Below, piece by piece: positions 2,255 through 51,656 of a stretch of 64,000 nucleotides of DNA. This stretch comes from Pseudomonas phage BRkr, in the sequence record LC765218.1. The stretch is one strand, 5' to 3'. Below the pieces are notes generated by a model that was given only the letters and a program-made list of their open reading frames with translations, had not been told where the DNA came from and did no database searches. How positions within the stretch are numbered: position 1 is the stretch's first letter; every line of letters starts with the position of its first letter. A program made the position numbers and the translations under genes.

Positions 2255-3411
2255 TACAGGAAATCCACATCAAATTCGTCTTTCTCACCACGGGTGTCAA
2301 GAAGGTTAACCATGTAGTCACCTTTCTCTGCTTCTTGTGGAGAGGCTTGAGTTGCCGAAATGTCGAGATATTCTACCATGAACGGCAGTGGGTTATCTTC
2401 AGGGAATTCCAGAGGAACACCAGTAAGTTCCAGGTATTCTGCCGAATGCTTTTCCAGAGTCTCCGGAATAATATTCAGGAAAGTACCAGCAGCGTTACCA
2501 TTAAACAGAACCCATTGGAACAGTTTTTGTGCGTTAACGCCAGCCAAGCTACGACCTTCGGAGAACAGGTATTTAACCCAAGTAACTTCAGTCCGAATGA
2601 TTTCCCAGAACAGTTCAACGATTTGTGGTTTACATTGCTCATAAGCAGTCATACCACGTTCAGTTTTCAGAAGAGCCTTGATGACTTCTTGTCCGTATTG
2701 GGCATGGATCTCGAATTCATCTTGAGCGATCTTCTTAACCGCTTCACCGATTTGTTGGAACAGGCCAGTTTTACAAATAGCAAAAGTCACTGCAAACGAT
2801 GCCATGAACTGAATACGTTCCAACATATAAAGTGCAATGAAGAACATGAAGATCTTATTGTAAGTTTCCTGGTTGTTGGGTACTTGCTTCAATGCATAGG
2901 CGTGAGATGTATCGTGTGCTTCACCCATTACACGTGCAACAGCAACCATGCGTTCCTGTGCTTCTTCAACGCGCAGGATTTCATCGAGAATAACACGCGG
3001 ATTCTTAAACGAACCCCGGACAATCTCGGAATAAGTAAGGGCGTGAACATCTTCGTTATCATTGATTCGAACATAACCAGTCCAAATCCTAGAGTCAGTC
3101 ATTACAGGACCAAGAATATTCACAATTGCTCGACTAGCTACAGAGTCAGCTTCCCATTGCCATGCAAGGGTTTTGATCATCATGTCGTAAGTCGATTTAT
3201 TGCATGTTTCAAATTCGATAAGACATTGTTGGAAGTCGAATTCCAATTCGTCCCAGTCAAGCTTACGTAGACGTTTGTAGAGAGACCATGGTACAGGGAA
3301 GTGAGTATGAATAGAATCTAGGAGTCCAGGTTCTTGACCAAGGATAATTTCAGGTACGTCATAGTCGGTCTTTTCTACGTTAAAGATTTTCTTGGGGAGC
3401 TTGTCAGTCAT
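2254..3411 (-). CDS. nrdB: ribonucleotide reductase class Ia small subunit
   Basis: Ferritin-like diiron/tyrosyl-radical segments are visible: EAHDTSHAYAL, FFIALYMLERIQFMASFAVTFAI, EFEIHAQYG. ATG at 3411 is preceded by AAGGAAA. The track ORF extends to a TTG at 3462. Confidence 0.85.
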   Translation of the reverse strand: MTDKLPKKIFNVEKTDYDVPEIILGQEPGLLDSIHTHFPVPWSLYKRLRKLDWDELEFDFQQCLIEFETCNKSTYDMMIKTLAWQWEADSVASRAIVNILGPVMTDSRIWTGYVRINDNEDVHALTYSEIVRGSFKNPRVILDEILRVEEAQERMVAVARVMGEAHDTSHAYALKQVPNNQETYNKIFMFFIALYMLERIQFMASFAVTFAICKTGLFQQIGEAVKKIAQDEFEIHAQYGQEVIKALLKTERGMTAYEQCKPQIVELFWEIIRTEVTWVKYLFSEGRSLAGVNAQKLFQWVLFNGNAAGTFLNIIPETLEKHSAEYLELTGVPLEFPEDNPLPFMVEYLDISATQASPQEAEKGDYMVNLLDTRGEKDEFDVDFL

Positions 3412-3517: not shown

Positions 3518-4465
3518 ATGTTTGAATTATTGTTATCATTACCGAAGAGAGCACCGAAGCTGACATACACCTACGATTTAGTGACATTAACACCAAGACC
3601 AACAATAGCTAATCATGCCACGGCCTGTGAACATGCTGGAAAATATATGTTGGTGGTGGACTTAACGCATCTACTCGTTCTATAAACAACTTCGATATTT
3701 ACGATATTGAAAATGATGCATGGACAGTTGGTGCAGTACTACCTGGTCAAAGACGATCGGGTGTAATGGCAGCTGACGGTAATCGCGTTATTTACGTCGG
3801 TGGGTATAACCAAGGTGGTAACCCAGTAGGACCGTTCTCTACAATCTACACTTACAATACAGCTAATAATACTTGGGGAACTTCAAACACGAGCGACGTA
3901 GCGCGATTTGAAGCTACAGGTATCCCGTTAGCAGGTGGACAGGTTATTGACTACTCTGGTTGGTCTGGTACGACAATGTTACCCAACGCTAGTCGTATTG
4001 ATGTTAATCCAACTGGTGGTGTTAGTACAACCCCATTACCAAATATACCGGCAGCTTATAGAACCCGTTATGCTGGTTCGTGCCGTAATGGAAATGACAT
4101 TTATATTGGTGGTGGATTAGACTCTGCTGGTTCTCCAGTAGATACATTCTTTTTACTATAGCCCCGTCACGAATACATTTAGGGCACTTGCACCGTTGCC
4201 AGTAAAACTAAATGCGGTTCAGTTGATGTGGCATAACAATGAAGTTATTGCTTATCTAGTAAATAGTGGTATATGGGCATATAACCCTGGTTCAAATGAA
4301 TGGAGACCTGTAAATGAAACTCCATCTGGAAATGTACATGGTTTATCGACCGGTGTACAAGTTAATAACGAACTATATCTAATCGGTGGTTTTGATACAG
4401 CTCGTCATGGATACCTTTCTAAGATTGTACCAACCTTGGTAGCAATAGATGACGTTCCAGTGTGA
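3518..4465 (+). pseudogene. frameshift-disrupted Kelch/beta-propeller-repeat gene (paralogue of 34085..35002)
   Basis: Three consecutive reading frames together encode a Kelch-like repeat protein: 3518-3685 frame 2, about 3631-4161 frame 1, 4196-4465 frame 2. N-terminus MFELLLSL... parallels MFESLLATL... of the intact minus-strand paralogue. Motifs YDIENDAWT, IYVGGYNQGG and LYLIGGFD are typical. Confidence 0.4.
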
Positions 4466-4469
4466 CATC

Positions 4470-4500
4470 ATAAAGCCCTCCCCTAAAGGGAGGGCGATAT
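4470..4500. terminator. bidirectional intrinsic terminator hairpin
   Basis: GCCCTCCC-ctaaa-GGGAGGGC 8-bp stem, flanked by cataaa and gatatat, between convergent 3' ends at 4465 and 4505. Confidence 0.5.
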
Positions 4501-4504
4501 ATCG

Positions 4505-6790
4505 TTACAGAGTACAGGCACCGCCAGCACATCCTTTCGAACCATCGTTATTTTCAAACGCAGATTCAAGAGCAGCCAGGGACAGGTTAGCAGAAGTCTC
4601 GGTATTCATGTAGTATCGAGTCTTCATACCAAGCTTAACTTGCAGGAAGTAGTCGCGAAGCATTTCGTTGGAGCTAATCTTCTCATCGCCGATAATCCGA
4701 CGATACAGGTCAGCAGAAATACCTTGGTCGGTCCATTTCTGGAAGATAGCGTAAGCTTCGATCATGTCCTTAGTTGGAATATCATAAGCCAGTTCGTACT
4801 TATACGCTTTGTCGTCTCCAAACGGGGCAGCCCAGTTAATCAGGTTATTGTTGTCCGACTTATTGATAACCAGACGACGAACCGGGTAAATAGAGTTAGC
4901 ACCACCTACCGCTTTCGAGGAGGCTTCACCTGGCATGTATGCAACAAGTACCGAGTGGCCGATACCACCGTTAGCAATGATTTCCTTACGAAGTTTCTCC
5001 CAGTTGTAAATGTTCTCAAACCCACCTGGTACGATTTCATCTACATTTCGTTTGTAGGTATCAAGAGGCAGCCAACCTTCAGGCCACAGAGTCTTATGTA
5101 TCCACGGTGCAAGACCACGTTCTTTAGAGATCCGCAGTGATGCCTCGATCAGGTGATACATGTGGCGTTCTGCAACAAAGTGCATCTCGCGCTTACCGGC
5201 CTCAGAAGAATACGCCAGACCGGCGCGGGCCATGTGTGTAGCAAGACCCATGATACCAACCCCAGCACTCATACGCTGTTTGGCAGTGAAACCGAGATGA
5301 GGGAAAGCATATTCTGCATTGAGGATACAATAATCAATCATCTTCAGTGCATAGTAAGCCGCTTTACGATAAGTTGCTGCATCAGGGATATTGTCAACAA
5401 CGATTGCTGCGAGAGAACAGGTAGCAATCTCACCTCGACCATGGTCTTCCTCAGAATAGAGGTCACGCATGTCGTAGTAAGGTTTGGTTGGTTCAGCAAT
5501 TTCCATGCAGAGGTTCGAACTATGAATCGGCTCTTTAAACGGAGTATGGCGATTCATTTCATCGATTTGAGCAGTATATGCAACACCAGTTTCATAGGCT
5601 TCGTTAAGAACCGTTTTTAGAAGATCCCGTGCATCGATGTATGTCTTAGTGAAATTCGGATCTGCTTCATACTTCTCGTAGAGTTCTTTGAACTTAGCTT
5701 GATCTTTACCGTAGAATGCTTCGAACAGGTCAGGTGCAGTATACGGGTTAAATACGAAGACCTTTTCATTCTTAGCTGCTTTAGCTGCGAACAGAACGTT
5801 ACCCATTGCTGCATAGTGAAGATCACGATTCTTACGGTCTTCAGTAGAGCGAGGGTTACGGAGTTGAGAGATCATATCCGCTTCTGGGTCAAAGAGACTA
5901 TAGAAGCTAGTTACAGCACCGCCGCGACCATTTTGCAGGTTAGCTCGAACAGCCTTACCCATTACATCGATGTAAGGTTTCTTACCTTGGTGAACGATGA
6001 GACCGTTACGTACAGGATCCCCAACAGAACGGGACATGATGTTTACACCAATACCAGCCGAAGACTGGGTCATGATGTTCGCGATGTAGTCTCCGATAGC
6101 CAACGAAGTACCGTTGTCGCCAGAAGCGAAGAGGCAGCAAGAAGCAAAGCCCCGCAGTACAGTACCAAGATTAACGTAGTTAGGAGTCGGCGCCGACAAT
6201 TGTTTTTGAGAGAACAATTCATAATAGTTCTTCACATGTTCCAGCCGCTCAGCTTTAGGTTCTTTCTCAGAAAGAGCCATTGCCATCCGCATGTATGTAA
6301 ACTGCTGAGTTTCATACTCTTTTCCAGACACGCGATTACGAAGGGAATACTTACCACGGATATGATGGAGAGCGAAATGGGGGGAATTGAAATCAAGATC
6401 ATGATTAATCATCTCCTGGATAGCCTGATATTCATCATCGCTATAATCCAGTTTGATCATTACTCCATCTTCATGCATTTTGGCATGAAGTTGTTTTACT
6501 GTCGGAATACCGTCCAGTCCATAGATTTTCTTACGCAGAAATACTGCGTACAGACGACCAGCCATTAGGTAATACGACCAGGTCTTACGATTAAGACATT
6601 CTTCGATCAGCCAACCCTGGAACTCCTGAGATGTAACCTTTTTGGGCTTACCGCTTACAGCACCTAGTACGATACTACCCCAGTCAACTTTGTTGCCCAG
6701 ACGTGCCGCTGCCCACTCACCCCAGCCATTTGCTTTCTCGTTATCGAAGGGTTGTTCAGTGCCATCCAGTTTGATAATAGTTTCAATCAT
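4505..6790 (-). CDS. nrdA: ribonucleotide reductase class Ia large subunit
   Basis: 761 aa. An N-terminal ATP-cone-like region is followed by a catalytic core with the NLCMEI active-site region, and the C-terminal tail carries a radical-transfer cysteine pair (...GCAGGACTL). Adjacent to nrdB. Confidence 0.9.
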   Translation of the reverse strand: MIETIIKLDGTEQPFDNEKANGWGEWAAARLGNKVDWGSIVLGAVSGKPKKVTSQEFQGWLIEECLNRKTWSYYLMAGRLYAVFLRKKIYGLDGIPTVKQLHAKMHEDGVMIKLDYSDDEYQAIQEMINHDLDFNSPHFALHHIRGKYSLRNRVSGKEYETQQFTYMRMAMALSEKEPKAERLEHVKNYYELFSQKQLSAPTPNYVNLGTVLRGFASCCLFASGDNGTSLAIGDYIANIMTQSSAGIGVNIMSRSVGDPVRNGLIVHQGKKPYIDVMGKAVRANLQNGRGGAVTSFYSLFDPEADMISQLRNPRSTEDRKNRDLHYAAMGNVLFAAKAAKNEKVFVFNPYTAPDLFEAFYGKDQAKFKELYEKYEADPNFTKTYIDARDLLKTVLNEAYETGVAYTAQIDEMNRHTPFKEPIHSSNLCMEIAEPTKPYYDMRDLYSEEDHGRGEIATCSLAAIVVDNIPDAATYRKAAYYALKMIDYCILNAEYAFPHLGFTAKQRMSAGVGIMGLATHMARAGLAYSSEAGKREMHFVAERHMYHLIEASLRISKERGLAPWIHKTLWPEGWLPLDTYKRNVDEIVPGGFENIYNWEKLRKEIIANGGIGHSVLVAYMPGEASSKAVGGANSIYPVRRLVINKSDNNNLINWAAPFGDDKAYKYELAYDIPTKDMIEAYAIFQKWTDQGISADLYRRIIGDEKISSNEMLRDYFLQVKLGMKTRYYMNTETSANLSLAALESAFENNDGSKGCAGGACTL

Positions 6791-27066: not shown

Positions 27067-27852
27067 ATGAGCAATATTGATTTTAGTTTTAACGCAAAAG
27101 AATTAGGGCTCACCAAAAACCATCTAGACACCATCTGGTTCGATATTACAGGTAATGGCGCCTTGGATGCGTACAACATCCGTGTACAGGTGGAAAGCCA
27201 CAGTGGTTGGAGTAAACCAACTGTCACGTTCGAAGGACGAGATCGTTCTTACTTGAACGTACGTGGATTGAATTCTTCTTTCAATGAGGAATCGTACGTT
27301 GCCCATGTTAAGTCTTTGTTGCGTGACGTTTACATTGAAAAATGTGGGTGGATCGAACAACGTATTCAACGTGCGTATCGTGATGTAGTAGATGAGTTCT
27401 CTGACCGTGGCTTCTTGTCTAATACTACTGGTGTGTACCAGGTGATTACAGACGCCTCTGATAAACCGGTTAATTTCCAGATCATGGGTTTGGTATCGTC
27501 CTATGTATTTGGTGATCTCGATGAAGAGACTGATTCTATTCGTAAACTGGAAAACAATAATGTCTTACATTATCCGCAATGGGTTCGTCCAGAGGTTCTG
27601 CGTTTTGCGGAGGTAGCTAAACGACGGCTTGAATGGTTGACTGGTAGCAAGGGTGTCAAATCGTTCGTACACGTAATGAAAAACGATGCGAATGAATACA
27701 CCCGTTCTGTTGTTATCGCAGTTGATGATGTCGAAAGTATCTATCATGGAGTTGCAGTTGGATTCATGATGCATCCTATCCGTTACTTTGATATGGATAG
27801 GCTGGCTTGGGATCCTAAGTTTGTCTCCATGATCAAGCTTAGTAATCGTTAA
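27067..27852 (+). CDS. hypothetical protein (261 aa)
   Basis: Complete ORF. Confidence 0.5.
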   Translation: MSNIDFSFNAKELGLTKNHLDTIWFDITGNGALDAYNIRVQVESHSGWSKPTVTFEGRDRSYLNVRGLNSSFNEESYVAHVKSLLRDVYIEKCGWIEQRIQRAYRDVVDEFSDRGFLSNTTGVYQVITDASDKPVNFQIMGLVSSYVFGDLDEETDSIRKLENNNVLHYPQWVRPEVLRFAEVAKRRLEWLTGSKGVKSFVHVMKNDANEYTRSVVIAVDDVESIYHGVAVGFMMHPIRYFDMDRLAWDPKFVSMIKLSNR

Positions 27853-27854
27853 GG

Positions 27855-27900
27855 CATAAAGCCCTCTCCTTCGGGAGAGGGTTATTCCACTTTATTTTTT
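27855..27900 (+). terminator. intrinsic terminator with T8 run
   Basis: GCCCTCTCC-TTCG-GGAGAGGG then ttattccactttatttttttt. Confidence 0.55.
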
Positions 27901-28160
27901 TCGCGGGGCCGGCCGCGCATAAGTAACTTGTTGTTAAAGAATAGATATCTTTAATAAAGAGTATTTTCCTTATTAAATGCTTTTTCTTTAAAAGAAATTT
28001 TATATAAATAGTAATTATATGTGGGGGGGACCCTTTGGGGGGGTCCCATATATAATTTCCTTATTCTTTAGTACGGGGTAGGGAAACAAAAACGACTATG
28101 TCGCAAAACTTGGAAGAGGGTGTCGTGGGGCTACAAAGCCCCATCCACCCAGTAGTAAAA

Positions 28161-28181
28161 ATTATTTCAAATCTATATTAC
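28161..28181 (+). promoter_or_regulatory. early-promoter-like element ATTATTTCAAATCTATATTAC
   Basis: TTTCAAATCTATAT subclass, shared with the elements at 35931 and 45951. Confidence 0.5.
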
Positions 28182-28220
28182 TTAGTTGAATATTAACTCG
28201 TAAAACTGGAAAAACCGAAA

Positions 28221-28442
28221 ATGAAAACATTGCTCCCTGATTCTTTGTTCTTGGTTAACAACGACGAAGACGTCCATGAGTTGATCAAACAGATGTACAT
28301 TAAGTTCAAAGTCGACATGGTCTCCCCTAAGACGATTCTCTGTTCTTATCCGTCAGTGATAATGGCAACGGTTAGTAAAGAGTATCAATCTCCAACGACC
28401 CTGATTATTCGTGTGGTACCCATTTCTGAAATTCTAACCTGA
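28221..28442 (+). CDS. hypothetical protein (73 aa)
   Basis: First ORF after the promoter element. Confidence 0.4.
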   Translation: MKTLLPDSLFLVNNDEDVHELIKQMYIKFKVDMVSPKTILCSYPSVIMATVSKEYQSPTTLIIRVVPISEILT

Positions 28443-38211: not shown

Positions 38212-38623
38212 TTACAACGAGCTTGAAAGATTACATCGAGTGATCTACAAGAAGAAAGAGTTCAAGGGCTACGGTCCAGGAGGAGTATGGGATGACGTTA
38301 TAACTTGGGTACTTAGTGTATCTAAGGCGTTAAATGAAAATCCAGAGGTAATACCAAAGGATGTTACCATACCAAATTTTAGTTATAATGGTAAACTAGC
38401 GGAACGATATCAGGAGTTGTTTCTAGAGCACGCGATCATATTTCTGAAAGCATTACCACGAGGAATTGTTAGTATATTCCCGATAATGTTTAAAGGAACA
38501 GCTGCTAGATTTCTGCTAGAGTACTATGGGAGTAAGTGGCAACAGCATGCGATCGTTACTGGTTTTCGAATCGAAGACTTTAACCGACCAGTTGGTAAAG
38601 GAAGAAAACGCGCTTCTAGTTAA
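38138..38623 (+). CDS. hypothetical protein (161 aa; an alternative in-frame GTG at 38240 gives 127 aa)
   Basis: Overlaps the upstream ORF by 74 nt in the +1 frame, so the start is uncertain. Confidence 0.35.
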   Translation: MEMQCMLSPPASLVFSMDLGIFFPNYNELERLHRVIYKKKEFKGYGPGGVWDDVITWVLSVSKALNENPEVIPKDVTIPNFSYNGKLAERYQELFLEHAIIFLKALPRGIVSIFPIMFKGTAARFLLEYYGSKWQQHAIVTGFRIEDFNRPVGKGRKRASS

Positions 38624-43176: not shown

Positions 43177-44346
43177 ATGATGTATAATTCCAATCCAACG
43201 CAAAATAAAGAAGTTGTATCTTTTCCTTTCGGTACTTACAATGTACTGGATGGTAATCTATGTGGTGAGATTGCTCAACCTGGAGCTAGCCGTTTCGCAA
43301 AGATCTGTACACTTGGCTTAGACTACCCCTATATGGAACAAGCATTACTGTTGGATTACAACATGTACTGCCATTTTGATGTTGCTCTACGTCAGGCATT
43401 CGCTCCGGAAGGCAAACTGATTACAGATTCTTACTCGGGTTATACACTTGCAGGATATCTACCGGATGAACTCCAAGAATTAGATGATCTTATCGCTAAC
43501 TTCATGAAAGAACATGAAGAACTCTCTAAGGATCAACTAGAAACTCTTTGGGCTGGTATGACCCTGGTTCGTCGTAGCTGGGTATTGCATGGTACAAGAT
43601 CGACAACTTCGCAAAGCCAAAGACTATGGACCCAGTACAATAACCTGATCAGCAAAAACGGTGAACTACCTGGTACACGACATGAGGTACTTATGAAAAA
43701 GATACCCACCTACGATACCGAATGTAATGAAATGCCAAAGTTCGATGGTATCGTTACTCCTCCTGAATGGTTGAGTATAAACGACGTTTTCACCAAGGGT
43801 TTCAAACCGGGCGAACTCCAAATCATTTCCTCTCCTGTATTGGACGACATTCCCAAAACGAATAGCCGTCTCTACATGTACAATAAACTTCGTGAACTAG
43901 GACATAACAACATCATGTTGGAATCTACTGATACTGAATCTGAAATGTCTACTGACCTTCTGGAACAACACCTGAGCAAAATGGAAACTGTTGAAGCTGA
44001 GCCGACCGAAATCGATTCGATCGAATCCCGCATGCGCACCCGCCGTAAGAAAAAGAAAGGTGCCAAGCGTTCCAAGCATATCACCAACTGTAAGTCCGGT
44101 ATGGTGAAAGCTTTGATGGGTGGATCTATTTTGGCTAAGCTGAGTCAGATTCAAACTCAGACCCAAGATGGTATTAAACGTGAGATCCTCAAGAACCATA
44201 CCTTGAGTTCTTTCGTTGAAACTGTTTCCGGCGAGGCTATCCCTGAGTATCAGAAACGTCTCCTGGATAAGTTCCAAGAGCGTGCTGATAGTAAACCCCT
44301 GAAACCTGTTGAGGAAGTCTCTGTACAGGACGGTGAACAGGTTTAA
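43177..44346 (+). CDS. hypothetical protein (389 aa) with basic patch RTRRKKKKGAKRSKH
   Basis: Complete ORF with a lysine/arginine cluster that looks nucleic-acid-binding or like a targeting signal. Confidence 0.5.
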   Translation: MMYNSNPTQNKEVVSFPFGTYNVLDGNLCGEIAQPGASRFAKICTLGLDYPYMEQALLLDYNMYCHFDVALRQAFAPEGKLITDSYSGYTLAGYLPDELQELDDLIANFMKEHEELSKDQLETLWAGMTLVRRSWVLHGTRSTTSQSQRLWTQYNNLISKNGELPGTRHEVLMKKIPTYDTECNEMPKFDGIVTPPEWLSINDVFTKGFKPGELQIISSPVLDDIPKTNSRLYMYNKLRELGHNNIMLESTDTESEMSTDLLEQHLSKMETVEAEPTEIDSIESRMRTRRKKKKGAKRSKHITNCKSGMVKALMGGSILAKLSQIQTQTQDGIKREILKNHTLSSFVETVSGEAIPEYQKRLLDKFQERADSKPLKPVEEVSVQDGEQV

Positions 44347-44352
44347 CTTAAA

Positions 44353-44378
44353 CGCCCAGCTTAAGCTGGGCTTTATGT
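44353..44378 (+). terminator. intrinsic terminator
   Basis: CCCAGC-TTAA-GCTGGG then CTTTATGTCG. Confidence 0.5.
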
Positions 44379-44388
44379 CGAGGTTAAT

Positions 44389-44811
44389 ATGATCCATAAC
44401 CCAAAAGTTCATGGTCCACTACTCAGGGTTAAGAGTCATTACAATTTATCTTCTAATGACTTCGTTGTGACTGGTATGGCTGCACTAGCTGTATCAGTTA
44501 GACGGCAGATCGACCCACAACACATCTCTATTTCGATAAAGAAAGATGTATGGGATAAGCTGATCGCTAAGTACCCTAACCTAAAAGCCGAAACTGTAAA
44601 GAACAGTATTCGTAATCAGCGTTACATTCGTTTGTTGTCGGATGTATATGCTGAGTGTGAAGACGTTCCATCTAAAGATATCAATTGGTATTCTGGTTAT
44701 CAGTTCCTCAAGGCTAATGTACTGAAGAAAGAACTGATCGGTCTTCGCGCTGAGGCAACTAAGAAGAAGAATCAAGAGTTCTACGATAAACTCTTGGAAC
44801 AATTCAAATAA
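44389..44811 (+). CDS. hypothetical protein (140 aa)
   Basis: Complete ORF. Confidence 0.5.
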   Translation: MIHNPKVHGPLLRVKSHYNLSSNDFVVTGMAALAVSVRRQIDPQHISISIKKDVWDKLIAKYPNLKAETVKNSIRNQRYIRLLSDVYAECEDVPSKDINWYSGYQFLKANVLKKELIGLRAEATKKKNQEFYDKLLEQFK

Positions 44812-47835: not shown

Positions 47836-47862
47836 TTAAAAAAAATCTGAGATCTATATAAC
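47836..47862 (+). promoter_or_regulatory. early-promoter-like element AAAAAAAATCTGAGATCTATATAAC upstream of chimallin
   Basis: AGATCT subclass. The shell gene is expected to be expressed immediately on infection. Confidence 0.55.
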
Positions 47863-47931
47863 AGTTTTGAATCCAATACACTGTTGGATCTCATTCTTGA
47901 TCAAGAAACGTTACAAACATAGGAACAAATC

Positions 47932-49797
47932 ATGATTCGTGATACCGAAACTCAAAACACTCAAGCTCAAGCCAACAACGCTCCGGCTCAAGCTGCTCCG
48001 CGCGCACAACAGGAAGCTCCTCGTATGCAACAAGCTGCACCTCAAGCTCTGCAAGGCGGTATTTCCGGCCTGCCGAACATGTTTAAACGTTCCGGTCGTA
48101 CTGATGGCGGCGACGCCCGTGCGAGCGAAGCGCTGCAAGTAATGACCCGCGTTGGCAAAGATGCCATCGACCATCAAGACCTGGAAAACGATTTCCAGAT
48201 TCTGCGTTTCGACCGTGATGCCAACCGTGTTGGCTACTCCGCGCTGCTGATCGTCAAGCACGCTGCTGGTGGTAACGGTATCATCGTAGTTCGTCCGCTG
48301 ATCATGCCGAACCCGGCAATCACCCTGCCTCCGCGTCAGGTTACCATTCAGAACGGCATGAGCCACGATCGCTTCGATGTAGACGTCGAAGTACAAGACG
48401 TATTCACCGTTCAGTACTGGAACCGCATCTGCGAATTCGTTCGTCAGACCACCGGTCGTCCGAAGGCTGAAGTACACCCGGCTGGACCGCTGCCGATCCC
48501 GGCTGAATTCGATCTGAAAGACGAAGTCCTGCTGAAAGACATTCTGATCCGTTCCGTCAACCTGTGTGACGACGTTCTGGCTAAGAAAGCTGGCGAGACT
48601 CCGTTCCAGATCGCAATGCTGCGCGGCCAAGATGAAACCCTGGCTGCCAAGATGGACTTCTCCGGTCGTCCGGTAATGGACAGCGTCGGTAACCCGATCA
48701 AGTCCGACATCGTGATCAGCCTGAACCGTACCAAGAAACAAGGTCAACAAGAGAACGAGTTCTACGAAGCAGACACCATGCTTAACCAGGTGTCGGTACA
48801 AGTAACCCTGGAGTACACCCCCACTCCGCAAGCCCAGATGTTCGGTCAACAGACCCAACCGCTGCCGCCGTTCTCCCCGGCGATCCTGGTAACCGACATT
48901 CGTCAGGCCAACTGGATCAAGGCAAACACTCTGGAACTGTACCTCTTCGCTCTGTCGAACGCCTTCCGCGTAACCGCTGGCCAGGCTTGGGCTCGTAAGT
49001 TCCTGCCTCAAGTTGGTAAAGTTAAAGACCTGGGTGACATCGGTGCTCTGGGTTGGCTGTCCAACCTGGGTAAGAAGATCGATACCAAGTCCGATACCTT
49101 CACCGATCAGAACTTCGCTGATCTGATGCTGAGCATGGTTCGTCCGAACCCGTCCTTCCTGATCGATCTGGATCGCATGGGCGACAACGCAGCACTGGAC
49201 GTAATCTTCCTGGATGCCATGGGTGGCCCGAACCAACAGAAAGCTACTGCCGCGATCATTCGCGCTGTACAGAACCTGGTTGGTGGTGGCTTCGAGCGCT
49301 TCTTCGACTTCAACACTCAGCCGATCATTGCATCGACTGGCACTGAAGTGAACAAGGGCTACTACTGGGATGGCGACGAGAAACGTGACCGTCGTGACCT
49401 GGATGCACTGGGTGCACTGAACGCTGCTGAGGGCAACCAACAAGAGTGGATGTCCTGGTACGGTACTCAATGCAACCCGAACATCCATCCGGAACTGCGT
49501 AACAAGCAATCCAAGAACTACGACCGTGCGTTCCTGGGTGCTGTAACCTACACCACTCGTGCACATCGTGGTATCTTCAACCCGAAGTTCATCGAGGGTC
49601 TGGATAAGGCGATTGCTGCTGCTGGTCTGACTGTAGCAATGGACAACGTTGCACAGGTCTTCGGTGCTCAGCGCTTCGTTGGCAACACCATGATCCAAGA
49701 CTTCGCTGTCGGTTCTACCGCACAGGTTGTCAACGGCATGGGCGTTGGTGGCGGCTACCAGATGAACATGGTAGGTTCGGTTGGTACTCTGTACTAA
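47932..49797 (+). CDS. chmA: chimallin, phage-nucleus shell protein (phiKZ gp54-like)
   Basis: 621 aa. N-terminal Q/A/P-rich low-complexity region, about 45 aa, as in chimallin N-terminal segments, and a Gly-rich C-terminal tail. Immediately upstream of the beta-prime N-terminal fragment, matching phiKZ gp54/gp55 synteny. Extreme host-like codon optimisation and an early-type promoter. No direct sequence comparison was possible. Confidence 0.7.
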   Translation: MIRDTETQNTQAQANNAPAQAAPRAQQEAPRMQQAAPQALQGGISGLPNMFKRSGRTDGGDARASEALQVMTRVGKDAIDHQDLENDFQILRFDRDANRVGYSALLIVKHAAGGNGIIVVRPLIMPNPAITLPPRQVTIQNGMSHDRFDVDVEVQDVFTVQYWNRICEFVRQTTGRPKAEVHPAGPLPIPAEFDLKDEVLLKDILIRSVNLCDDVLAKKAGETPFQIAMLRGQDETLAAKMDFSGRPVMDSVGNPIKSDIVISLNRTKKQGQQENEFYEADTMLNQVSVQVTLEYTPTPQAQMFGQQTQPLPPFSPAILVTDIRQANWIKANTLELYLFALSNAFRVTAGQAWARKFLPQVGKVKDLGDIGALGWLSNLGKKIDTKSDTFTDQNFADLMLSMVRPNPSFLIDLDRMGDNAALDVIFLDAMGGPNQQKATAAIIRAVQNLVGGGFERFFDFNTQPIIASTGTEVNKGYYWDGDEKRDRRDLDALGALNAAEGNQQEWMSWYGTQCNPNIHPELRNKQSKNYDRAFLGAVTYTTRAHRGIFNPKFIEGLDKAIAAAGLTVAMDNVAQVFGAQRFVGNTMIQDFAVGSTAQVVNGMGVGGGYQMNMVGSVGTLY

Positions 49798-50128
49798 GAA
49801 ACAACTCCCCCGGTTGATAGGGGTGTCAGAAGGCTGGCATCCCGATTCAAATACTGCGACCCTGGTTCACTTCGGTGATAACGGTTAGGAGTAGGTTCCG
49901 CGAAGTAATCGACTAGTGGGCGTAAAGTCTAGGTCGACCTCTCGCTACACGGGCCGTGAGTGATCACTTAACCGAAAGGAGTTACTCTTGGGTAACGTGT
50001 GATCAAACAACGATGGATGGTAAAAGGTCCTAGTGCCAGAGTGCTACAGAGAAGAGCGGAGGTTAAGCTTTGTAGACGACGCTAGGATCGTGCCAGGCTC
50101 CGTTGGTGGTCCATCGATAGTAGATAAG

Positions 50129-50168
50129 GCGGCTCCTTCGGGAGCCGCTTCTATCTCCTTTTTTTGTC
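50129..50168 (+). terminator. intrinsic terminator
   Basis: GGCGGCTCC-TTCG-GGAGCCGC then ttctatctccTTTTTTTgtcg. It ends a roughly 370-nt untranslated tail after chimallin. Confidence 0.55.
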
Positions 50169-50189
50169 GAGACATAATAGGAAGTAGGT

Positions 50190-51656
50190 ATGGGTCTATA
50201 TGCTCAGGTTGTCAATCATGACGAGATGCTCGCTAACCAAAGAGGTAAAGTAGTATTCGCTAATGACTTTAATACCAGCAATGCTGAACAAAAGGAGGAA
50301 TTCCAACGTTATCTGTTCTCCCATTATCAGGATGCAGATGCGATCGAGAACTCAGCTTCGTGTGACTGTGAGCATATCACAGAAGCATACAAGCTTGGGG
50401 TAATCTGCGATAACTGCGGTACACCAGTAGTAAGCACGAGCAACCGACCCATCGTTCCATCGATGTGGATTCGGGCACCGGAAGGGGTGGATCGTCTGGT
50501 GAGTCCCGAGTTGTGGATTATGCTTTCAGGTTATATGTCGATGAAAGAATTCGACTTCCTGGAGTATCTGACCAACACCCAGTATCAGTACGATTACGAT
50601 ACGATCAGTTCGAAGGAAACAAAACGGAAACTTGACAAGTTGCTGGCTCGCCAGTTCCCGCGTGGACTGAACAACTTCGTTCAGAACTTCGATACGATCT
50701 TCCAGTTCTTGCTCGATAGCAGTATCATCAATACCAACAAAGGTGAGATGGCTGCATTCGTTAACCAGAATAAAGAACATCTGTTCCCGAAGAACATTCC
50801 GATCCCAACTAAACTCTGCTTCGTTGTAGAGTCTACGACCTCGGGTGTTTACATCGATAAGCCGATCGGCGCAGCAATCGATGCGGTACTGACTATTAGT
50901 AGTATCGGTAGTTCGGCAATTCCGCTGAAACCAATCACTGTACAAAACCGTGTAGCTCGTGCATTGAAGCTTCTAGCTATCTTCCACGAGAACTACGACA
51001 AACAACGAATTGCACAGAAACCCGGTTTGGTTCGTCGACATGTACTAGGTGGTCGTCTTAACCTGACTGCACGTGCAGTAATTACTTCTATCAGTGATCC
51101 GCATGATTACGATGAACTTCACATTCCGTGGGGTGTTGGTTGTCAGCTGTTGAAGTATCATCTGATCAACAAGCTCAAACGCAAATTCCGTATGACGACT
51201 CGCCAAGCGAACTCGTTCATTTACGAGAACGTTCTGAAGTACAACGAAGTCATCGATCAACTGTTCAAAGAGATCATCGCGGAATCGAAGTATAAGGGTC
51301 TTCCTTGTGTATTCCACCGCAACCCGACTCTGCAACGTGGTTCGACTCAACAGTTCTTCATCACCGTTATCAAGAATGACATTCGCGATAACTCAATCAG
51401 CATGTCGGTCCTCTGTCTTAAAGCTCCTAATGCTGATTTCGACGGCGATCAGTTGAATTTGACGTTGATGCCCGATAACTATCTGGCTGATGCAACTGAG
51501 CGAATCGCTCCGCATACTTGGGTACTAAGTCCTGATGATCCGCACGAGATCTCGGGTAACTTGGAACTACAAGGTCCGGTAGTAGAGACCATCATCAACT
51601 ATGCTCACGAGGACTATCTTCCGTCCTTGGAAGAATGGTTGGCGAAAGCAGCTTAA
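50190..51656 (+). CDS. multisubunit RNA polymerase beta-prime subunit, N-terminal fragment (phiKZ gp55-like, non-virion RNAP)
   Basis: N-terminal zinc finger CDCEHITEAYKLGVICDNCG and the absolutely conserved catalytic Mg-binding loop NADFDGDQ near residue 415. The protein ends about 70 aa later, as in split phiKZ-type beta-prime. Confidence 0.8.
   Translation: MGLYAQVVNHDEMLANQRGKVVFANDFNTSNAEQKEEFQRYLFSHYQDADAIENSASCDCEHITEAYKLGVICDNCGTPVVSTSNRPIVPSMWIRAPEGVDRLVSPELWIMLSGYMSMKEFDFLEYLTNTQYQYDYDTISSKETKRKLDKLLARQFPRGLNNFVQNFDTIFQFLLDSSIINTNKGEMAAFVNQNKEHLFPKNIPIPTKLCFVVESTTSGVYIDKPIGAAIDAVLTISSIGSSAIPLKPITVQNRVARALKLLAIFHENYDKQRIAQKPGLVRRHVLGGRLNLTARAVITSISDPHDYDELHIPWGVGCQLLKYHLINKLKRKFRMTTRQANSFIYENVLKYNEVIDQLFKEIIAESKYKGLPCVFHRNPTLQRGSTQQFFITVIKNDIRDNSISMSVLCLKAPNADFDGDQLNLTLMPDNYLADATERIAPHTWVLSPDDPHEISGNLELQGPVVETIINYAHEDYLPSLEEWLAKAA

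Follow-up and report, generated by a model that had tools for sequence, protein, structure and literature searches.

A new structured-RNA family in the chimallin 3′ untranslated region and intercistronic spacer of Pseudomonas aeruginosa jumbo phages

Several described RNAs of phages and other viruses offer points of comparison for the long non-coding spacer that separates the genes for chimallin (ChmA, the nuclear shell protein) and the beta-prime subunit of the non-virion RNA polymerase (nvRNAP) in Pseudomonas phage BRkr, within a 64,000-nucleotide (nt) stretch of sequence record LC765218.1 (hereafter the window, whose numbering we use unless another genome is named). Among the early genes of nucleus-forming jumbo phages, chimallin is the one that defines the group and is expressed most abundantly; it is followed by the gene for a subunit of the polymerase driving the remainder of the infection. 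The spacer holds an RNA module that we describe here as a new structured-RNA family of P. aeruginosa jumbo phages. In phage PAK_P3, stable non-coding RNAs (ncRNAs) are derived from 3′ untranslated regions (3′ UTRs), namely ncRNA1 of ~210 nt and ncRNA2 of ~120 nt (PMC10914365; first Chevallereau 2016). Like the chimallin module, these RNAs lie downstream of a coding gene, lack a transcription start site (TSS) of their own, stem from the upstream gene's 3′ UTR, are conserved in relatives and have no assigned function; those of PAK_P3 are abundant. They differ in being unrelated in sequence and shorter, and in that their processing and accumulation have been demonstrated, whereas the chimallin module comprises three domains (~320 nt), lies between two core genes of nucleus-forming phages and is laterally exchanged. 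Grad-seq and ONT-cappable-seq studies establish that phiKZ, too, makes non-coding RNAs. The candidates reported there (5'UTR_gp40, 3'UTR_PHIKZ298 and 17 derived from 5′ UTRs) come from the same phage group and share with the module an intergenic structured RNA at an intrinsic terminator, but they are 70-200 nt long and mostly arise by premature termination past a promoter, none lies at the PHIKZ054/055 spacer, and the chimallin module, unlike them, has no promoter of its own.

Three further comparisons concern function or architecture. The Rev response element of HIV-1 (RRE, ~350 nt) and the constitutive transport element (CTE) of Mason-Pfizer monkey virus (MPMV) resemble the module only functionally, each being a large, multi-branched RNA within a viral message that is bound by a viral or host RNA-binding protein for exit of the message from the nucleus. 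The authors who studied ChmC (gp67 in phiKZ), an RNA-binding protein of the phage nucleus, themselves likened it to Rev and NEP. However, the module has no sequence or structural homology to RRE or CTE, an export role for it would be by analogy, and early chimallin mRNA is made in the early phage infection (EPI) vesicle before any nucleus is present. The HK022 put element and EAR are likewise folded RNAs ahead of a terminator, with downstream phage genes that need read-through; put, however, is ~70 nt long with two stem-loops, acts on the host RNA polymerase (RNAP) and shows no similarity or Rfam match here, and relatives that lack the chimallin module keep the operon layout. Finally, GOLLD and ROOL are large multi-domain RNAs of phage genomes with expandable peripheral helices and, like the module, no assigned function. 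Their covariance models gave no match (at gathering score or at E<=10), and the module falls far short of them in size, does not stand as a gene by itself and is confined to three genera of P. aeruginosa jumbo phages.

The spacer runs from the chimallin stop codon (TAA, 49795-49797) to the nvRNAP beta-prime start at 50190, all on the + strand, and thus measures 392 nt (49798-50189), in agreement with a preliminary description of this DNA, made from the sequence alone, that had reported an untranslated gap of ~390 nt with balanced GC. That balance was borne out: the GC fraction is 0.49-0.53 in the window and 0.51 in the near-identical record of phage PS119XW, compared with 0.39 in the other spacers of PS119XW pooled, 0.37-0.44 in its other long spacers and 0.43 in its genome. 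Among the 53 intergenic spacers (median 45 nt) that the RefSeq annotation of PS119XW yields over its first 50 kb, the chimallin 3′ spacer ranks first in length and is the only long one with balanced GC.

A consensus structure computed with RNAalifold from seven sequences (the window, HPP-Temi, phiKZ, SL2, PA7, LC and KEN49) resolves the spacer into three domains, D1 to D3, followed by a terminator, all on the + strand. According to the pair counts of this consensus, D1 (49808-49955) is a four-way junction closed by helix P1 (49808-49812 with 49950-49955), from which radiate helix P2 (49814-49817 with 49847-49850) with hairpin P2a (49820-49843), the three-segment arm P3 with its UUCG loop (49852-49893) and arm P4 (49900-49945). 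The conserved junction strands of D1 are GAUAGGG, CCCGAUUC(A/U)AAU, GUAGGUUCCG and CUACACG, and the conserved unpaired junction strands of the module read GAUAGGG, CCCGAUUCUAAU, GUAGGUUCCG, CUACACG and CACUUAACC-AAAGG. D2 (49962-50004) consists of a closing stem, GAUCAC/GUGAUC, around a CC-GAAA-GG mini-hairpin and a 6-bp hairpin. D3 (50011-50116) is closed by a long-range stem, CGAUGGAU/GUCCAUCG, inside which lie a long bulged arm (50029-50092) and a short hairpin (50095-50110). Two elements singled out by the preliminary description take on a different meaning in this fold. Both are by-products of other helices and are not conserved as such. In place of a CCCC...GGGG hairpin, CCCC(G) pairs long-range with CGGG at 49950-49955 in the covarying helix P1, and the GGGG belongs to P2a; the palindrome GTGATCAC amounts to one side (5′) of the stem that closes D2, with two adjacent bases, and is not kept in phiKZ, which has UAGAUCAC.

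The fold is specific to one strand. The + strand folds better than shuffled sequence, over the whole spacer (z=-3.8, with none of 100 shuffles equally stable) and in the spacer body without the terminator (z=-2.6); the - strand does not (z=-1.65 and -0.09, respectively), and many G-U pairs are compatible with the + strand alone. A covariation analysis, which the preliminary description had proposed as a check, found 114 consensus pairs in the seven-sequence alignment, with 98.9% of cells paired and compensatory double changes at eight pairs, four of the D3 pairs showing such changes. The covariation score was 0.104, against 0.066 in shuffles (0/500 as high), and in a slid control in which partners were moved by 1-3 columns pairing fell to 34-41% with at most one compensatory pair. 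PhiPA3 was added through a sequence-only alignment, since covariance models failed across its P4 insertion and D3. With PhiPA3 included, compensatory pairs rose to 10 and the covariation score to 0.184 against 0.105 (0/500), while P1, P2, P2a, the base of P4 and the D2 closing stem were all still 100% paired. P1, P2, P2a and the P4 base covary across three genera, one P2a position being filled by three different Watson-Crick pairs; in PhiPA3 (GAACCAC/GUGGUUC) and HPP-Temi, covariation is also seen in the stem that closes D2 and in its hairpin. When the PhiPA3 D1 was folded independently it gave the same four-way junction, although P2a, P3 and P4 differ in sequence, the P3 loop is GAAA in place of UUCG and P4 is ~130 nt longer; PhiPA3 resembles the others in sequence only in the junction strands, D2 and the terminator. 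Conserved junction strands, covarying helices and an expandable peripheral arm are together what an RNA that adopts a specific tertiary fold should show, and the compensatory substitutions together with the conserved junction strands point to ongoing selection.

Searches for known families gave no assignment. We used Rfam 15 (4227 models, including riboswitches, ribozymes, RNase P, tmRNA, 6S and GOLLD/ROOL/OLE). At gathering score the whole window yielded only two tRNAs (651-815), at E<=10 the region 49000-51000 yielded only terminator-like chance matches far under threshold, and at E<=1 the homologous loci of PhiPA3, phiHQ, Psa21, Phabio, 201phi2-1 and a metagenomic relative (L005; L numbers denote the loci compared) yielded nothing. 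ARAGORN found in the window only tRNA-Pro and tRNA-Leu (648-815), and at the homologous loci neither a tRNA-like element nor a tmRNA. The two tRNA genes, for tRNA-Pro(UGG) and tRNA-Leu(UAA), are adjacent on the - strand.

The module is better conserved than its surroundings. In 100-nt windows compared with phiKZ, the spacer is 79-92% identical and the flanking coding DNA 45-65%; globally, the spacer reaches 83%, the 3′ end of chimallin 57% and the 5′ end of beta-prime 63%. The preliminary description had named absence or lack of conservation in close relatives as a refutation of its reading, and this level of identity shows the opposite. Yet the proteins tell a different story from the RNA. 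The chimallin of the window is 66% identical in amino acids to that of PhiPA3 and 48.5% to that of phiKZ, and its beta-prime 85% and 67%, respectively, whereas the spacer is only 49.5% identical to that of PhiPA3. Since the flanking proteins are nearer to PhiPA3 but the RNA is nearer to phiKZ, we conclude that the module has been exchanged laterally. The P3 arm, moreover, is identical in the window and phiKZ even though PhiPA3 indicates that its sequence is free to vary, so that constraint alone is insufficient to explain the identity, and a recent transfer between the two lineages is the parsimonious account. The long arm of D3 occurs as two alleles, and SL2 and PA7 carry the Pawinskivirus-like allele within an otherwise phiKZ-like module. 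Co-conversion by the phiKZ gp56 homing endonuclease was considered as a cause of the identity and rejected, because the intervening gp55 DNA is only ~60-67% identical.

BLAST found the element in 56 phage records, every one from a P. aeruginosa jumbo phage (Phikzvirus, Pawinskivirus and PhiPA3), invariably at the same position and in single copy. In Phikzvirus and Pawinskivirus our covariance model R1 matched this locus alone, in PhiPA3 it matched partially, and pattern scans of IMG/VR with the D1 motif, the D2 motif and the terminator returned PhiPA3 and PA7 only. One scan of metagenomes and one of GTDB (185,579 species genomes) added no true homologue; they produced three loci, L019-L021, which we rejected as chance matches in ABC-transporter ATPase genes, antisense to the Walker A region. 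An nhmmer search with the seven-sequence profile detected only the terminator in 201phi2-1, Phabio, Psa21 and L005.

At this site the structured RNA differs from lineage to lineage, each followed by the same type of terminator. The spacer holds nothing but the terminator in Noxifer (84 nt) and RVTF4 (102 nt), and measures 194 nt in the metagenomic relative, 392 nt in the window phage, 394 nt in phiKZ, 435 nt in Psa21, 515 nt in PhiPA3, 536 nt in phiHQ, 634 nt in Phabio (with a 90-aa open reading frame, ORF) and 874 nt in 201phi2-1 (with a 188-aa ORF). PhiHQ keeps D2, D3 and the terminator but has, in place of D1, a structured segment of ~300 nt that is unrelated to it. This segment, which we call type B, is homologous, with compensatory changes, to the entire chimallin 3′ spacer RNA of the P. 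syringae phage Psa21, and has no Rfam match. It lies at 1193-1500 of the phiHQ locus (L007), at 4277-4600 of the Psa21 locus (L016) and at 3001-3088 of a locus (L022) in the Ralstonia phage RP13 (171 kb), where the type-B core (~110 nt), with compensatory changes (CCCAG/CUGGG, CUCGA/UCGAG and CCAGA/UCUGG), sits 10 nt upstream of a tRNA-Leu gene. Since the length and content of the spacer vary and the type of terminator is constant, the site is a cargo hotspot and the module is accessory; the chimallin 3′ UTR is a hotspot for the swapping of different structured-RNA modules. Phabio gives a weak D2-like match (L014 4416-4496, E=0.2). Separately, we observed that the spacers of 201phi2-1 (L004 4822-5046) and the metagenomic relative (L005 4900-5093) have in common a hairpin displaying CCUAAAUACUGG, and that those of 201phi2-1 and Phabio (L014 4265-4548) have in common a GGGAUC-GAAA-GGUCCC hairpin.

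The intrinsic terminator that ends the spacer occupies 50123-50165 (+ strand), with a hairpin at 50123-50155 followed by UCC and a U7 tract (50159-50165). Its core, GCGGCUCC-UUCG-GGAGCCGC (50129-50148), is unique in the window, and the hairpin has the features of an intrinsic terminator, with an 8-bp GC core, a UUCG loop and a 5-bp extension; a simple terminator scanner missed it owing to an internal loop. The preliminary description placed the end of the terminator, at 50168, a few bases too far. The terminator lies 24 nt ahead of the nvRNAP beta-prime start, its sequence is near-invariant across the three genera, and a UUCG-loop terminator of the same type directly precedes nvRNAP beta-prime in all relatives examined.

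Transcript data for phiKZ place the module at the end of the chimallin message. By ONT-cappable-seq, the homologue of the window terminator is the transcription termination site T025 at 47888, an intrinsic terminator of -16.7 kcal/mol (Putzeys et al., bioRxiv 10.1101/2023.10.13.562163). In the same study, the units from the chimallin promoters P025-P028 stop at T025, so that chimallin mRNAs carry a long 3′ UTR; units from P026/P028 to T028 (7.1-7.3 kb) read through into PHIKZ055-059; there is no + strand TSS between 45583 and 49168; and no transcript boundary of any kind falls in the spacer (475xx-4782x). Similarly, no promoter was found for the beta-prime gene of 201phi2-1 (gp107; PMC11512511). 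In the window, homologues of both P026 and P028 are present upstream of chimallin, the latter as the early-promoter core TCTATATAAC at 47853-47862. A motif scan of the window spacer found no phage early-promoter core, a scan for sigma-70 promoters, which is irrelevant anyway to a phage independent of host RNAP, found none, and no A-rich+TACT middle-promoter motif fits at the stop-codon region. The nvRNAP beta-prime gene is therefore without a promoter of its own and is reached through read-through. The module itself is bounded by the chimallin stop and this terminator, no second terminator intervenes, and its 3′ end is that of the parent mRNA. Taken together, we are confident that the spacer is a specifically folded, three-domain + strand RNA of ~320 nt that forms the 3′ tail of every chimallin mRNA as an accessory module. 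The preliminary description had offered a structured 3′ UTR controlling the mRNA, or an ncRNA. As to what the element is, this was well founded, given that it covaries, is strand-specific and is transcribed in phiKZ; a controlling role is a separate and, on this evidence, hypothetical matter.

What might such a module do? We tentatively favour the reading that this structured 3′-UTR or intercistronic RNA serves as a protein-binding platform, mainly in cis. Conserved junctions, freely covarying helices and expandable peripheral arms fit an RNA that acts through a defined tertiary fold as such a platform, and do not fit a generic stabilising hairpin. The module would thereby provide the most abundant early/middle message with a compact, nuclease-resistant, protein-bound 3′ end that may favour its handling, be it stability, passage out of the EPI vesicle or nucleus, or translation. 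The adjacent terminator would set the amount of transcription that continues into the promoter-less nvRNAP gene, and upon read-through the module becomes the intercistronic spacer of a chimallin-nvRNAP beta-prime transcript. Cis action is preferred because different structured modules take exactly this position across lineages and because the junctions are conserved; the mechanism is put forward as a working proposal. The candidate partner, and the sole one with experimental indication, is ChmC. Enhanced crosslinking and immunoprecipitation (eCLIP) of PhiPA3 ChmC gave discrete crosslinking peaks in the homologous spacer, which the authors interpreted as small regulatory RNAs, and ChmC binds most phage mRNAs near their start codons with little sequence specificity (Enustun et al.).

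A number of points weigh against this proposal. Given the low specificity of ChmC, the eCLIP peaks could merely reflect RNA abundance. The bare terminators of Noxifer and RVTF4 imply that the module is unneeded for basic expression of chimallin or nvRNAP, and the type-B core beside a tRNA gene in an unrelated Ralstonia phage hints that such modules may work outside the chimallin context, which favours action in trans. The structural evidence has limits of its own, in that the covariation is drawn from only three lineages plus close variants, and the D3 of PhiPA3 could not be aligned with confidence, covariance models R1 and R2 being stopped by the 130-nt P4 insertion and the divergent D3. Lastly, the transcript data come from phiKZ and PhiPA3 and not from the window phage.

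A more specific and quite speculative version, to which we give little weight, is that the module is a compartment-crossing signal recognised by ChmC, marking chimallin and read-through nvRNAP transcripts so that they are preferentially exported out of the EPI vesicle or phage nucleus, or are translated locally beside the growing shell. If true, this would make it a bacterial-virus counterpart of the retroviral RRE/CTE export elements, and selection for building the shell faster would lie behind its lateral spread among P. aeruginosa jumbo phages that co-infect.

The main rival to a cis-acting platform is a trans-acting accessory RNA, either cut from the 3′ end of the chimallin mRNA or accumulating as a stable remnant, that acts elsewhere, for example through sequestration or mimicry of a factor of the host or phage in host takeover, anti-defence or competition between co-infecting jumbo phages; its place behind chimallin would then serve just to ride the strongest early/middle promoters. 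Accessory cargo is typically exchanged between genera and swapped as modules, as is the case here, and the site also holds unrelated cargo, small ORFs included, in 201phi2-1 and Phabio. The conserved junction nucleotides would suit a specific ligand, the discreteness of the eCLIP peaks and their authors' reading of them as small regulatory RNAs count in its favour, the type-B core in RP13 lies outside the chimallin context, and the abundant processed 3′-UTR-derived ncRNAs of PAK_P3 set a precedent (PMC10914365). Yet the RNA is not known to have a processed 5′ end, to exist as a discrete species or to act on a target; the ONT study reports no boundary inside the phiKZ spacer, and the RNA is not among the results of the two phiKZ ncRNA screens. 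At ~330-370 nt and with hardly any long conserved single-stranded stretch, it is also unlike base-pairing small RNAs and outside the 50-250 nt usual for processed small RNAs from 3′ UTRs; its conserved unpaired stretches are short junction strands with no obvious seed, and the counts of GGA (RsmA-type) and Shine-Dalgarno-like motifs in the spacer are about at chance level. On balance we regard a trans-acting RNA as unlikely, while taking it seriously.

Alternatively, the RNA could be an attenuator or antitermination leader that sets read-through of the terminator, either by sensing a ligand or protein or through direct action on the phage's RNA polymerases in the manner of HK022 put. The reliance of the beta-prime gene on read-through is what such a device would serve, and the arrangement is suggestive, with an aptamer-like conserved junction upstream of the terminator and ribosome-binding site, and the near-invariant terminator adjoining D3. 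In the window and phiKZ, the loop of a D3 hairpin, GGCUCC, even copies the 5′ arm of the terminator and could compete for its 3′ arm. This duplicate is absent from PhiPA3, however, and neither inspection nor folding revealed a mutually exclusive terminator/antiterminator pairing kept in all three genera. Nor does the RNA sit in a 5′ leader directly after a promoter, the spacer having no promoter core; no riboswitch or leader family matches it, D1 is wholly replaceable in phiHQ, and Noxifer and RVTF4 keep the gene order with a bare terminator. With no conserved alternative pairing, no promoter and such relatives, a riboswitch-like attenuator is improbable.

Equally hard to sustain is the suggestion that the spacer is a passive stack of hairpins that shields the 3′ end or insulates the terminator, or the decaying remnant of a mobile element or intron, a remnant of a decayed gene or intron having been among the possibilities raised in the preliminary description. 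The module is dispensable in some relatives, the site is an insertion hotspot, and introns and homing endonucleases do occur nearby in phiKZ-like phages, as with phiKZ gp56 right after gp55. But neither a passive hairpin stack nor a decaying remnant predicts that unpaired junction strands should be kept in three genera while the helices vary with compensation, and the module has been repeatedly retained after transfer. Neither a group I nor a group II intron matched 49000-51000 even at E<=10, and the module lies between genes and interrupts neither, both chimallin and beta-prime ORFs being full-length relative to their homologues. The idea of a remnant thus finds no support in intron matches, position, compensatory changes or junction conservation.

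The notion that the spacer encodes a small protein can be excluded for practical purposes: the only encouragement for it is a 62-aa ORF (50033-50221, + strand) with a weak AAGG motif 6 nt ahead of its GTG start and short hypothetical coding sequences (CDSs) that pipelines placed here in HPP-Temi and KEN49, which disagree on position and strand, while the ORF itself, already judged spurious in the preliminary description, runs through D3 and the terminator and across the beta-prime start into the next gene, is broken by indels and stops after ~29 codons in every Phikzvirus genome examined (phiKZ, SL2, PA7, LC and KEN49), matches no Pfam or PHROG family, and accumulates substitutions that track base-pairing rather than codon structure, no other ORF of at least 25 aa being common to the homologues.

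Several observations concern the neighbourhood of the module. The chimallin gene (47932-49797, + strand; Pfam PF25677, full-length, E=0) has a GC fraction of 0.53-0.60, against ~0.43 for the genome and 0.39-0.45 for adjacent genes, and this step is sharp at the gene start and fades only past the structured spacer, which is consistent either with foreign origin or with strong codon bias owing to very high expression. A 10-nt palindrome, CTTGATCAAG, lies in the chimallin 5′ UTR (47896-47905; also at ~1577-1586 of L001 and ~1566-1575 of L002) and is kept in Pawinskivirus, phiKZ and PhiPA3 although the leader around it differs. It could form a hairpin or serve as a site for a protein; in PhiPA3 it has no link to the 3′ module. 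A pairing between the 5′ and 3′ UTRs through UGAUCA palindromes was dropped, as PhiPA3 keeps the 5′-UTR palindrome and not the one in D2. On the other side, the gene for the N-terminal part of nvRNAP beta-prime with its Shine-Dalgarno region spans 50179-51656 (+ strand; PF00623). In the window it is a single intact ORF of 488 aa (50190-51656), as in PhiPA3. The RefSeq record of PS119XW (NC_070882, 43353-45181) has it split into 43353-44663 and a 62-aa CDS with an apparent 329-nt spacer, and in the region compared at L001 3886-6168, phiKZ gp55 ends at residue 419 and is followed by gp56. The locus as a whole is 99.5-99.7% identical between the window and Pseudomonas phages PA1C, PS119XW, phiLBG22 and HHBS36_1 (genus Pawinskivirus, ~302 kb). 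Of the other long spacers, the second-longest (27852-28222; 371 nt, GC 0.37, fold z=-5.0) contains three or more terminator-like GC hairpins as well as an early-promoter core (28172), and looks like a terminator/promoter junction, unlike the structured RNA after chimallin. The third-longest annotated one (38212-38546; 335 nt, GC 0.39, fold z=-3.2) is coding-like by eye and may be a gene left unannotated in the RefSeq record.

In the literature we found no description of the structure, conservation or function of this element, and three transcriptome or ncRNA surveys do not list it, although the model phages phiKZ and PhiPA3 both carry it; its only earlier trace is the unexplained ChmC eCLIP peaks. 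An RNA that is better conserved than either flanking protein gene and that has passed between genera will hardly be incidental. With it, the short list of large structured phage RNAs gains a candidate, and it offers a handle both on the dosing of promoter-less nvRNAP beta-prime expression and on how key messages are stabilised, exported or translated across the barrier of vesicle and shell.

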